Positions 5,756-18,327 of a stretch of DNA of 38,152 nucleotides are shown here, piece after piece (position 1 is the stretch's first letter; every line of letters begins with the position of its first letter). A program made the position numbers and the translations under genes. This DNA is from Candidatus Uhrbacteria bacterium (GTDB lineage Bacteria > Patescibacteriota > Patescibacteriia > 2-12-FULL-60-25): assembly GCA_014728435.1 (NCBI GenBank), contig WJLP01000096.1, forward strand, positions 1-38,152, written 5' to 3'. The notes under the pieces are model-generated. The model was not told the origin of the DNA. It saw only the letters and a list, made by a program, of their open reading frames with translations, and searched no databases.

Positions 5756-5974
5756 ATGCCTAAGTTTACTATCATTAAACAAATGGAAACCAATATCCCG
5801 CAAACAGAAAACGCCTCAGCAGAACAAGAAAAGATTAAAAAAATTCCGAATGTTAAATTCGTTTACCAAAATCCGATGTGCCTGATACCATGCGCCACCG
5901 GTTTTTGTTCATTCATTTTCGTCATCGGTTTATTTGTTTTTTTAATGATTTTTGGGTATTTTTCCAAGCATTGA
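5756..5974 (+). CDS. Small hypothetical membrane protein
   Basis: 72-aa ORF divergent from the regulator, with a C-terminal hydrophobic segment. There is no motif support. Confidence 0.3.
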   Translation: MPKFTIIKQMETNIPQTENASAEQEKIKKIPNVKFVYQNPMCLIPCATGFCSFIFVIGLFVFLMIFGYFSKH

Positions 5975-6008
5975 CTTTTTAATGTTAATAAAGCAAGATT
6001 TCAAAAAT

Positions 6009-15329: not shown

Positions 15330-16433
15330 ATGAAAACCGCACTCGCACCCCATGTCTCATACCTCGTACAACGCATCGGCGTGTCTCTTTTGCTATTTTT
15401 CGCGCTGGCAACAATTTTCGGCGCCGGCTGTAAAAGGACTCCGCCGCAAATTCCATCCGCAAATGAAAATCAACCCCCGGCAACTCAAGAAGCAAATAAT
15501 AAGCAGGATCAAGATCAACAAATGCAAGAAGTTGAAGTCGGCGACCCGGCCACTCTTGCCATCCTCCTGCTCACCCAAGAATCCCAAGTCACGGTCGCCC
15601 GCGGTGACGAAAGCACGGACGCCGTACATCAAATGGAGCTCTACGCCGGTGATGAAGTCAGTGTCATTAAAGGCGAGGCTCAACTCCTTTATCCCGAAGT
15701 CGGTATGTCCGTTCTCCCGGAAGGGACCAGAATCACCATCATCCCCGGTGAAGACGCGGAAAACGGCGGCTTTTCGTCACAAATCCTCCTTGAAGCCGGC
15801 AAAATCTGGACCAGGTTGGAACACGTGCTTGGCACGGATGAAGATTTCTCGGTCGAAGCCAGTAATGTGGTAGCCACGGTCCGCGGCACGGCCTTTGGAG
15901 TCTCGTTCGTCAACGGTGAAATCGATATCAAAGTCGCGGGCAACCAGGTTGCCGTTTCAACCCGAGAAGCTCTGAAAAATCTAAAAGAAACCGCGCAAAA
16001 AGCTGTTCTGGTTGCCTCCGGCAATGCGCTCAAAATCGACCCGGCAAATCTAAAACCCGGAGAAAACCCGCGCCCCAAACTGCTCGCAAAACTGCGCAAA
16101 GTTTCACAAACCGAAAAGAAAGATCTCTACTACAGATTCGGTACGCGTCGCCTAAACATCACTGATCTAAAAAAACCGGAACAAACATTCAAATGGTCCG
16201 CGCCCATCGGTCTCAAAGATAAGGTTAAAGAGCGCTTAACCCCCGAGCAGATCGAAAAGCTGAAAGCCATCCAAGACAAGCAAATCAGATTACGTCCCGA
16301 ATTACTGGAAGACGAGGCTCGTTTGCGAAATATTCTACAAGATTCTGTCCGCTTCCAAACTCCGCTCCGTCAGGTAATTCTTGAAGAAATGACAACCGAT
16401 GAAACGCCGTCAGCCACAGGTCCGAGCAATTGA
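15330..16433 (+). CDS. FecR-domain lipoprotein, paralogue 1
   Basis: Signal peptide with lipobox FGAGC. FecR-like core LYAGDEVSV..GEAQLLYPE..MSVLPEGT...AGKIWTR...FSVEASNVVATVRGTAFGV. Confidence 0.8.
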   Translation: MKTALAPHVSYLVQRIGVSLLLFFALATIFGAGCKRTPPQIPSANENQPPATQEANNKQDQDQQMQEVEVGDPATLAILLLTQESQVTVARGDESTDAVHQMELYAGDEVSVIKGEAQLLYPEVGMSVLPEGTRITIIPGEDAENGGFSSQILLEAGKIWTRLEHVLGTDEDFSVEASNVVATVRGTAFGVSFVNGEIDIKVAGNQVAVSTREALKNLKETAQKAVLVASGNALKIDPANLKPGENPRPKLLAKLRKVSQTEKKDLYYRFGTRRLNITDLKKPEQTFKWSAPIGLKDKVKERLTPEQIEKLKAIQDKQIRLRPELLEDEARLRNILQDSVRFQTPLRQVILEEMTTDETPSATGPSN

Positions 16434-16568
16434 GACCCGGAGTTGTCCCTCGAAGCTTTAGTGTAAGGGGATTAAATTTAATTTCATCATACTAGGAATT
16501 ATGATTAATTTGAGTTTATATTTTGGTGAATTTGGGTCCGGCGCCGTGTTGTGCTAAGCTCGCTTGGT

Positions 16569-17801
16569 ATGAAGTTAAGCAAAGTTTTACCGCTGGCACT
16601 CGCTTTGATTATTTTTGGAGCTGGTTGTAGCTGGTTTGGACAAACCGAACCAGGCTTAAAAGCGGAATTGGGCGGTTCGCTCACTCAGTCCGAAGTAGAG
16701 CGCTATAATGAGTTTCAAGATAAATTGCCCAAAGGCTTGGCTTATTTGAATATCCCAAGCGGCTCTAAAGTTTTCGTTAGCCGCGGTAAGGAACGGATGC
16801 CGGGCAAGCAAGACATGGCGCTTTATGCCGGAGACACGGTTCACGTTAACACCGGCGAAGCTAAGCTGTTATACCCGGGAAAAGGCATGTCACTCTTGCC
16901 CAAAGGCGCGGCTGTCACAATCTTGCCCGAGGGTGAGTTTGCCTCTGGTCAAGGTTTGGGTGCCTTAATTATCCTTGAAGCCGGCAAGATCTTCACTCGT
17001 TTTGAGCAAATACTCGGCCATGGCGAGGAGTTTTCCGTCCAAGTCGACAACGTGGTGGCCACGGTTCGCGGCACGGCATTCGCTGTCTTCAAAATTGAGG
17101 ACACTGTCGATATACAAGTCGCCGAATCTACAATAAAAGTTACAACTCGCGATGCCATGGATTATTTAAAACAAAGTAACTCCATGCTGGCTGATGTGGG
17201 CTGGGAGTTAAGCGCTGGCCGGCAAATCAGCCTGCAAGATATGGATGAATTCAGGGCATTGGCTCAAATTGAACCTGTCTCAGACGACAGCTTTGCTTAC
17301 TTTGACATGGATTACTATTATTCCAACCTGTTTGCCTCCGGCACGCAAGACGTCGTCATCAATACCGCAGATCGCCAAGGTTTCAACTGGATGTCGCGGC
17401 AAATGACCGCAACCGAACTCGCGATGCCGGAAAACCCTTATCACTGGACCAAGCCGCCCGTAATTGATCCGTACTATCTAAACTATATAAATCCTGAACG
17501 CTTGTCCGAATGGCAAAGTTACATTTTATGGCTGGAAACCAATCAAGATGAAGCCGCGCGCATGGAAGAAATCCGCTTGCAAATGCAATCCGAGGGCATG
17601 TTTAGCGCGCCGGTTGAATCGGCTGACAGCCAAGACGAATCACCCGCTTCAGTAAAACCTTCATCAGACGGTCCAACCGATGAACCACCTGAAAGCATAA
17701 TTTACTACGACGAAAACGGCCAGCCGCATTTTACGGATGAAGCCCTGGGAACTGATTCAAATAACGACAGCGTCGAGCTTTTGGGTGTCCCTGCTGAATA
17801 A
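16569..17801 (+). CDS. FecR-domain lipoprotein, paralogue 2, with an acidic C-terminal extension
   Basis: Lipobox FGAGC. The core LYAGDTVHV..GEAKLLYPG..MSLLPKGA...AGKIFTR...FSVQVDNVVATVRGTAFAV is collinear with paralogue 1. Start taken at ATG 16569. Confidence 0.8.
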   Translation: MKLSKVLPLALALIIFGAGCSWFGQTEPGLKAELGGSLTQSEVERYNEFQDKLPKGLAYLNIPSGSKVFVSRGKERMPGKQDMALYAGDTVHVNTGEAKLLYPGKGMSLLPKGAAVTILPEGEFASGQGLGALIILEAGKIFTRFEQILGHGEEFSVQVDNVVATVRGTAFAVFKIEDTVDIQVAESTIKVTTRDAMDYLKQSNSMLADVGWELSAGRQISLQDMDEFRALAQIEPVSDDSFAYFDMDYYYSNLFASGTQDVVINTADRQGFNWMSRQMTATELAMPENPYHWTKPPVIDPYYLNYINPERLSEWQSYILWLETNQDEAARMEEIRLQMQSEGMFSAPVESADSQDESPASVKPSSDGPTDEPPESIIYYDENGQPHFTDEALGTDSNNDSVELLGVPAE

Positions 17802-17826
17802 TTCGGTATCGTATAGCAGAAAAGGC

Positions 17827-17855
17827 TTGACATTTAAGCCTCTTTTTGTTATACA
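17827..17855 (+). promoter_or_regulatory. Near-consensus sigma-70 promoter: TTGACA, 17-nt spacer containing TGt, then TATACA
   Basis: ttgaca (17827-17832) and tataca (17850-17855), with TG at 17847-17848. Confidence 0.6.
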
Positions 17856-17861
17856 AAGCAC

Positions 17862-18135
17862 AGAGGTTTGAGCCGCGGTATCTCGGTTCAATCCGAGGGA
17901 ACCCGCCGGCACTCCGGGATTCGCCAAAGTAGATCGCTCTCTGGCAACAGCGATCTGCTAAGGCACTGCAAAGGTATGCCGCAGTATGCGGCTCCTTTGT
18001 CCGCAAAAGCGGTGCGGAATCTCCCGGCGCCTGCTGCCAATGGCCCTCTTAACAAGGGGGCTCGCGGGTTCATCCCGCTCTCGTGCGCCCGCGCATACGC
18101 GCTTAATTGCGACACATTGGCAAGCTTAAACCTCT
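17862..18135 (+). ncRNA. Unclassified GC-rich structured RNA of about 275 nt
   Basis: - A 12-bp closing helix, AGAGGTTTGAGC (17862-17873) with GCTTAAACCTCT (18124-18135).
- An 8-bp helix, 18035-18042 with 18115-18122.
- At least six local hairpins.
- Its own promoter and terminator.
- No plausible SD-led ORF. Confidence 0.6.
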
Positions 18136-18143
18136 CTATCTCT

Positions 18144-18175
18144 CCGGTCACAATCGTGGCCGGTTTTTCTTTTTA
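18144..18175 (+). terminator. Intrinsic terminator of the structured RNA
   Basis: ccggtcac-aatc-gtggccgg (8 bp, one G-U) followed by tttttcttttt. Confidence 0.75.
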
Positions 18176-18255
18176 ACTTATTTATATGACTTTCCTGGTT
18201 CAAGAACAGGTTGATTTATTATCTAAAATAAGATAATCTCCACTAACAAGTCCAT

Positions 18256-18304
18256 AGTACTTAGTCCATTGTCCTGGCTTCGATCAGCGCCAGGACTAAG
18301 TACT
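18256..18304 (+). other. Strong hairpin in the lepA upstream region
   Basis: agtacttagtcc pairs with ggactaagtact (12 bp) and tcctggc with gccagga (7 bp), with one 4-nt bulge. It ends 24 nt before the lepA ATG. Confidence 0.5.
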
Positions 18305-18327
18305 CAGGGCTAGGGACTGTTTTGATT

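Follow-up and report, generated by a model that had tools for sequence, protein, structure and literature searches.

The stretch of DNA analysed here, called the window (38,152 nt), comprises positions 1 to 38,152 of contig WJLP01000096.1 in the assembly GCA_014728435.1 of a Candidatus Uhrbacteria bacterium (Patescibacteriota). Between two FecR-like genes and lepA it holds a segment with a G+C content of 59.5%, compared with 37-38% in the flanking spacers and 47.5% in the whole window. A preliminary description, made from the letters of the DNA, had seen in this segment a stand-alone, transcribed, multi-helix RNA of unassigned class. The contrast that it noted between a GC-rich island and AT-rich flanks was borne out (0.595 vs. 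0.37-0.38), and the RNA itself was supported by covariation, by an invariant promoter and terminator, by the lack of a conserved reading frame and by the lack of any Rfam match. We consider it probable that the segment is an independent gene for a structured non-coding RNA (ncRNA) belonging to a new family, and not a leader of lepA.

The signals around the segment (Table 1) are consistent with a discrete transcription unit. A sigma-70-type promoter (TTGACA, 17 nt, TGnTATAC) would start the transcript at about 17862 and an intrinsic terminator would stop it at about 18170, the predicted product being stable, GC-rich and approximately 305 nt long. The promoter was present as first described (TTGACA-17-TATACA with a TG extension) and scored 10/12 by hand, plus the TG extension, against the E. 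coli-type consensus, whose relevance to this lineage is assumed; the consensus scanner omitted it because the -10 hexamer has no final T. Its core elements, TTGAC and TG-TATA, were invariant and constantly spaced in the alignment of the window RNA with its homologues (8 of 8 sequences), and the intervening spacer was variable. One related locus, L033, has TATACT as its -10 element (L001-L072 are the related loci that were compared with the window). The clean terminator noted after the RNA body was recovered by the terminator scan, with eight pairs in its stem (18144-18163), six of them G-C, followed by a T run.

Upstream, the terminator-like hairpin that closes the FecR-like gene was found in the window, L022, L036, L002 and L038 (5/8 loci). 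Downstream, the promoter-like site of lepA (TTGATT-17-TAATCT) was conserved 3' of the terminator in all the inspected relatives, with and without the RNA. The terminators on both sides and this site bracket the RNA gene, lepA apparently using its own promoter; on these sequence signals, the RNA appears to be an independent transcription unit. The FecR-terminating hairpin accommodates, within its loop and stem, the -35 hexamer that belongs to the promoter of the RNA, a very compact overlap of terminator and promoter.

Table 1. Positions of the RNA gene, its helices and signals, and of other features in the window and in related loci (L-numbers). Strand + is the strand of lepA.
Feature	Position	Strand	Remarks
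Terminator-like hairpin and T run closing the upstream FecR-like gene	17823-17848 (hairpin 17823-41)	+	terminator scan
-35 element TTGACA	17827-17832	+	TTGAC invariant in 8/8 homologues
Extended -10 TGtTATACA	17847-17855	+	17 nt past -35; TG 17847-48, TATACA 17850-55; G, T, A, T, A invariant columns
Structured RNA body	17862-18135	+	z = -7.4; 269-274 nt across homologues; predicted 5' end ~17862
P1, closing helix	17863-17873 with 18124-18134	+	11 pairs, 100% paired, 5 covarying
P2	17875-78 with 17903-06	+	encloses P3; invariant or one-sided changes
P3 hairpin	17881-86 with 17893-98	+	3 covarying pairs
P4	17907-09 with 18031-33	+	closes 5' domain (17907-18033); no double-sided covariation
P5	17916-22 with 18019-25	+	closes four-way junction; no double-sided covariation
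P6, long hairpin	17923-17964	+	14 pairs, 6 covarying
Variable hairpin	17965-17999	+	sequence differs, hairpin formed in every homologue (per-sequence folds)
Invariant block UUGUCCGCA...GCGGARUCUC	17996-18025	+	contains P7 and the 3' strand of P5
P7	18000-04 with 18014-18	+	UCCGC/GCGGA; no double-sided covariation
3' domain	18036-18121	+	closed by P8
P8	18036-42 with 18115-21	+	4 covarying pairs
P9	18043-46 with 18058-61	+	2 covarying pairs
P10	18063-73 with 18083-93	+	5 covarying pairs
P11	18100-02 with 18109-11	+	1 covarying pair
Intrinsic terminator, stem CCGGUCAC/GUGGCCGG then U run	18144-18173	+	terminator scan; stem invariant in 8/8
lepA promoter-like site TTGATT-17-TAATCT	18211-18239	+	read from sequence; outside the RNA gene, delimits it
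lepA 5' UTR hairpins/repeats	window 18249-18311; L004 5918-5987; L007 ~5880-5990		
Inverted repeat just upstream of the RNA promoter	L003 5449-5553; L006 5407-5511		not in window
DUF559/MTES_1575 endonuclease ORFs	L039/L040 8350-8775; L041 6489-6914; L072 1667-2038; L036 2623-4491		

Fold and compensatory changes

The RNA body had a minimum free energy (MFE) of -135.9 kcal/mol (z = -7.38), all of 200 dinucleotide shuffles being less stable. The opposite strand also folded well (z = -6.2), so that folding energy by itself cannot choose the strand. The G-U cells of the alignment (69 in total) discriminated better, with 97.5% of cells paired on the + strand vs. 88% on the - strand, and these cells, the promoter and the terminator all favour the + strand. 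Pairing was counted on an eight-sequence alignment (A2), using 500 shuffles and 3' partners slid by 1-3 columns as controls: 97.5% of the cells were paired and 26 of the 81 pairs had changed on both sides, over 55 cells. Sliding the partners left 0-5 double-changed pairs, and none of the 500 shuffles reached the observed values. The segment is a gene, it lies on the + strand, and its fold is conserved.

RNAalifold, run with five and then with eight sequences, gave a single shared architecture, with which most of the single-sequence folds agreed. P1 (11 bp) encloses the P2/P3 hairpin, a 5' domain and a 3' domain. In the 5' domain, P4 and P5 (94-96% paired) close a four-way junction with P6, the variable hairpin and P7; two additional pairs at the base of P5 showed an apparent CC/GG to UU/AA switch, as read from the alignment. 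In the 3' domain, P8 closes a second four-way junction, with P9, P10 and P11. The loop of P6 (CUGGCAAC, 17941-17948) was invariant in the alignment, as was the G-N-A-C of the P2/P3 internal loop; the loop of P3 was variable, its UUCAAU being found in the window only. A complementarity of five base pairs, invariant on both sides, was detected between GGCAA in the P6 loop (17943-47) and UUGUC (17997-18001), and could correspond to a loop-junction pseudoknot.

Most of the helices of the preliminary description were recovered. Its closing helix of 12 bp (17862-17873/18124-18135) was present at that length in the single-sequence MFE fold, and 11 of the pairs were conserved in the homologues. The helix 18035-18042/18115-18122 was supported as P8 (18036-18042/18115-18121); the hairpins at 17881-17898 and 18043-18061 correspond to the covarying P3 and P9, and the one at 17929-17958 lies within P6. 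The hairpin at 17969-17999 was formed in every homologue despite the variation in its sequence. Other proposed pairings were abandoned: the CCGC-AAAA-GCGG hairpin (18001-12) was missing in three lineages, with P7 as the conserved alternative; the hairpin at 18064-78 and the GC hairpin after it were supplanted by the single covarying helix P10; and in the long-range AACCCGC/GCGGGUU pairing the 17900 side was invariant and paired locally in P2, the 18064 side varying without compensation.

Open reading frames (ORFs) of 102 amino acids (+ strand) and 87 amino acids (- strand) span the segment, and might suggest that there is no RNA gene here, but a small protein gene or GC-rich DNA pairing by chance. 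However, no frame was free of stop codons in all the homologues, and the indels observed were of 1, 2, 5, 7 and 8 nt, none of them a multiple of three. Neither ORF matched Pfam, and the 102-aa translation had no homologue among 5.8 billion proteins. The preliminary description had regarded these ORFs as non-coding, in agreement with the broken frames; added to the compensatory changes in 26 pairs and the z value of -7.4, they leave practically no probability to a locus without an RNA gene.

Distribution among relatives and relation to lepA

In four genomes (L022, L002, L006 and L003), blastn and nhmmer located the segment 5' of lepA. When metagenomes were scanned for the invariant block (TTGTCCGCAN{4,10}GCGGARTCTCYC), seven matches were obtained, of which L033 was the sole homologue; the other six belonged to unrelated organisms of high G+C content and lay in coding sequence. 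Further homologues came from relatives of FecR and LepA that were looked up, namely L036/L037, L038, L044 (= L022) and L072 (= L033); the other loci obtained in this way carried no RNA. The total was eight distinct sequences from seven lineages, with 60-74% nucleotide identity to the window RNA; for comparison, identity was 77-80% for the DNA of lepA, 57-75% for the FecR genes and 44-53% for the spacer that separates the terminator from lepA. A covariance model of the RNA (R1) scored 221-287 bits on the homologues and found one copy per RNA-bearing locus, with no extra or divergent copies in 435 kb of related loci. The RNA family is restricted so far to one Patescibacteria (Uhrbacteria-like) clade of genus or family level. 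In the LepA tree, the RNA-bearing lineages were interspersed with RNA-less ones within one clade (LepA at least 84% identical).

In two RNA-less loci (L004, 5833-5870; L005, 2943-2987) a terminator homologous to that of the RNA (CCGGTCACAGCAGTGACCGGTTTT) was retained right after the FecR stop codon, so that the RNA gene body looks to have been cleanly deleted there. In L001 (5504-5881) the place of the RNA was occupied by a 125-aa ORF for a predicted membrane protein, with hairpin terminators on both sides. The pattern of presence and absence agrees with vertical descent accompanied by deletions.

A site that is syntenic apart from having the RNA in some genomes and not in others would also be produced by mobile or defence cargo, or its remnant (an omega/HEARO RNA, a retron msr-msd, a bridge RNA or an RNA associated with a reverse transcriptase), gained and lost as a unit. 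The terminators left alone past the FecR stop codon in L004 and L005 could be explained in this way, and two other features point in the same direction: an inverted repeat (31-32 nt) that closely precedes the RNA in L003 and L006, and homing-type DUF559 endonuclease ORFs near it in relatives. On the other hand, no gene for a reverse transcriptase, nuclease-guide protein (IscB, TnpB), transposase, recombinase or Cas protein was found in the 38-kb window, nor was any reverse transcriptase, IscB, TnpB, recombinase or Cas gene found in the related loci, and there was no match to HEARO, retron or other Rfam families. No flanking direct repeats were seen, and each locus held a single copy, without others in the 435 kb. 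Two scans of viral contigs yielded no homologue, their 25 matches being due to chance, and nothing in phage or plasmid records was matched by BLASTN. Given also the agreement with vertical inheritance, an origin as mobile cargo is scarcely credible.

A connection with lepA deserves closer attention, the RNA being upstream of this gene and on the same strand in 8/8 cases. Its closed, multi-junction, aptamer-like fold followed by an intrinsic terminator could be a very large cis leader or riboswitch, in which the fold would respond to a ligand and so determine whether transcription continues through the terminator (18144-18173) into lepA. Cobalamin, lysine and T-box riboswitches have the same arrangement of a closed junction fold, a terminator and a downstream gene on the same strand; the window RNA differs from them in having no Rfam match and no B12 box, and in a terminator uncoupled from P1. 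Specifically, P1 and the terminator have no nucleotides in common and are separated by a 7-10-nt linker, the complementarity search revealed no conserved anti-terminator in the RNA body, and no conserved complement of the terminator arms could be read from the alignment.

The genetic context argues in the same sense. The promoter-like site of lepA, itself a sequence prediction, lies 3' of the terminator and is kept in RNA-less relatives; a 217-aa ORF sits between the RNA and lepA in L002; and relatives with 84-88% identical lepA carry no RNA. The order MurJ-FecR-lepA-recJ is found clade-wide, so that the position of the RNA may be merely inherited. The large leader or riboswitch, offered as one option in the preliminary description, is thus disfavoured by the promoter-like site, the L002 ORF and the uncoupled terminator, and we consider it quite unlikely; an independent RNA gene accounts for the locus better.

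Comparison with known RNA classes

The window (1-38152) contained no tRNA genes and, in a search of Rfam 15 (4227 families), no family at the gathering score. At E <= 10, short stretches holding the RNAs of the window, L033 and L002 gave chance matches only, to scattered microRNA, small nucleolar RNA and small RNA (sRNA) families, none of which recurred between homologues (scores below roughly 9-12 bits were not displayed). ARAGORN found no transfer-messenger RNA (tmRNA) in the window. Individual classes were rejected as follows: tmRNA, for which no tRNA-like ends were found by ARAGORN and no match in Rfam; signal recognition particle (SRP) RNA, with no Rfam match, the fold being multi-branched and not rod-like; 6S RNA, with no Rfam match, the covariation-supported fold having two four-way junctions; RNase P RNA, with no Rfam match at the gathering score or at E <= 10 in three homologues; and raiA, OLE, ROOL, GOLLD and HEARO, with no covariance-model match at the gathering score or at E <= 10.

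RNase P RNA is essential, and its universal conserved regions CR-I and CR-V form the long-range helix P4. Neither CR-I (GAGGAAAGUCC-like) nor CR-V (ACAGAA-like) was found in the alignment, and an all-against-all complementarity search revealed, beyond the nested fold, no long-range conserved helix resembling P4. This class was also checked by hand because the RNase P RNAs of the candidate phyla radiation (CPR) can evade thresholds, some being so diverged as to be found only below the Rfam noise cut-offs (PMC8172020). The same divergence could favour the interpretation of the window RNA as a highly divergent version of a known housekeeping RNA (RNase P RNA, tmRNA, SRP RNA or 6S RNA), and a length of ~272 nt and a strong promoter would suit an abundant stable RNA. 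Its size near that of the smallest RNase P RNAs, its closing P1 and its multi-domain fold are further likenesses to RNase P RNA.

Against this, no family was matched at E <= 10 in three homologues, ARAGORN found no tmRNA, and CR-I, CR-V and any conserved P4-like pairing were missing. The order of helices differs from that of RNase P RNA, and the topology is one of nested junctions, without the pseudoknotted core of RNase P, the rod of 6S and SRP RNAs or tRNA-like ends. The RNA is also missing at the locus in sister lineages, which would be odd for an essential gene, unless it had moved. We therefore regard a divergent housekeeping RNA as very improbable.

The hallmarks of RNase P RNA, tmRNA and SRP RNA that the preliminary description had failed to see were indeed missing, judging from Rfam and ARAGORN. 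That description had proposed a search of Rfam and a search for homologues with a covariation check: the former gave no confident match, and thus no known class, and in the latter the homologues compensated in the main helices and preserved no frame. The housekeeping-type RNA that it had offered as its other option was weakened by the syntenic sister lineages with no RNA at the locus.

The raiA motif RNA (ModT) occurs in more than 2,500 species of Bacillota and Actinomycetota, and its function is not established (PMC10861870). Like the window RNA, it is a stand-alone, multi-stem RNA gene (~200-270 nt), in which many unpaired nucleotides are invariant and no ORF is conserved (PMC10861870). The window RNA differs in having no match in Rfam 15, in which the raiA motif is curated; in its two four-way junctions under one closing helix, with no covariation-supported pseudoknot; and in its phylum and range (~7 lineages vs. 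>2,500 species). OLE, ROOL and GOLLD are often GC-rich islands or conserved intergenic blocks (PMC12286853). They share with the window RNA, whose transcription is predicted, independent transcription, heavy structure and a function that is unknown or partly known; their length is 2-3 times greater, and several have links to phages or to specific proteins; the window RNA had no match to their Rfam families. The closest analogues are the raiA, OLE and ROOL-type orphan RNAs, without homology to them. The family is new, with no relative in Rfam, and the type of object, a stand-alone orphan structured ncRNA, is familiar.

Possible role and genomic surroundings

Nearly all the nucleotides of the RNA are paired or invariant, which makes it ill-suited to act as a seed-pairing sRNA, and no targets complementary to its invariant loops were found within the window. 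It appears to be neither a cis leader of lepA nor a base-pairing sRNA. The invariant unpaired CUGGCAAC, the UUGUCCGCA...GCGGARUCUC block and the junction G-N-A-C probably build a tertiary core, possibly with the loop-junction pseudoknot. Through this core the RNA would act in trans, binding a partner that may be a protein or a small ligand, and it might be a scaffold or a ribonucleoprotein-type RNA, comparable to raiA or OLE. Such a partner-binding mode of action is put forward tentatively, with slightly less than even chances. An essential housekeeping role, weakened by the patchy distribution, is probably not what the RNA fulfils. On balance, we lean somewhat towards an undescribed class of complex-folded RNA with its own biochemical task, which could be catalysis, higher-order assembly or the binding of a ligand or protein, in ultrasmall, host-dependent Patescibacteria, being neither a regulator of lepA nor a housekeeping variant.

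Several observations weigh against reading the segment as an independent gene for a trans-acting RNA of a new family. The RNA was missing at the syntenic locus in at least four sister lineages (L001, L004/L005/L008, L039-L042, L071 and L007), all of which keep the MurJ-FecR-lepA-recJ order; absence was assessed at that locus, and either the function is dispensable, or it is replaceable, or the RNA is encoded elsewhere. Every copy found precedes lepA and shares its strand, which makes some link with this gene possible. P2, P4, P5, P7 and the terminator stem, in which no double-sided covariation was seen, are supported by conservation, and the seven lineages form 2-3 subgroups, so that many covarying cells trace to few events. 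The proposed pseudoknot is made of invariant bases only. With regard to transcription, the -10 hexamer has no consensus final T in 6/8 sequences, and the transcript ends are predictions from sequence signals. Finally, action in trans through the fold is argued by exclusion.

Patescibacteria account for a large share of bacterial diversity and have tiny genomes, and at the RNA level they are almost unstudied. In a genome of ~1 Mb, an RNA of 272 nt with two four-way junctions and invariant unpaired blocks is costly, and the cost of its upkeep argues for a real biochemical role. A search of the literature on structured RNAs in CPR/Patescibacteria returned only the report on diverged RNase P RNA; if the class proposed here is real, it would be the first orphan structured RNA class reported from the CPR in the literature found. 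Being narrowly and patchily distributed, the RNA is of limited general importance; the patchiness also offers natural comparisons of presence and absence in near-identical neighbourhoods, which may reveal a partner or a role.

The neighbours of the RNA gene in the window are ordinary: genes for Era, a tRNA U5-methyltransferase, SpoU, a GT2 glycosyltransferase, MurJ and the two FecR-like proteins, and, downstream of the RNA, LepA, then RecJ, RNase H and a type IV pilus cluster. The tandem FecR-like paralogues (15330-16433 and 16551-17801) were ~31% identical to each other and borderline at the Pfam threshold; one or two copies were present in relatives, and their number did not track the presence of the RNA. 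The DUF559/MTES_1575 endonuclease ORFs (Table 1) were located between the MurJ and FecR genes in some relatives and have the appearance of small insertions of mobile or homing type; in other relatives the same domain was fused to the tRNA U5-methyltransferase gene. The arms of the inverted repeat of L003 and L006 (AAATAGCAAATGGCAAATAGCAAGAGTT...) were 84-97% complementary and flanked the FecR terminator.

The 5' untranslated region (UTR) of lepA is a fast-evolving structured or repetitive leader: it contained long hairpins or tandem 7-nt repeats, wholly different among close relatives, with 19-nt arms in the window (fold z = -3.6), AGCCTCT and AGCTGGT repeats in L004 and CAATCACCAA-type repeats in L007.

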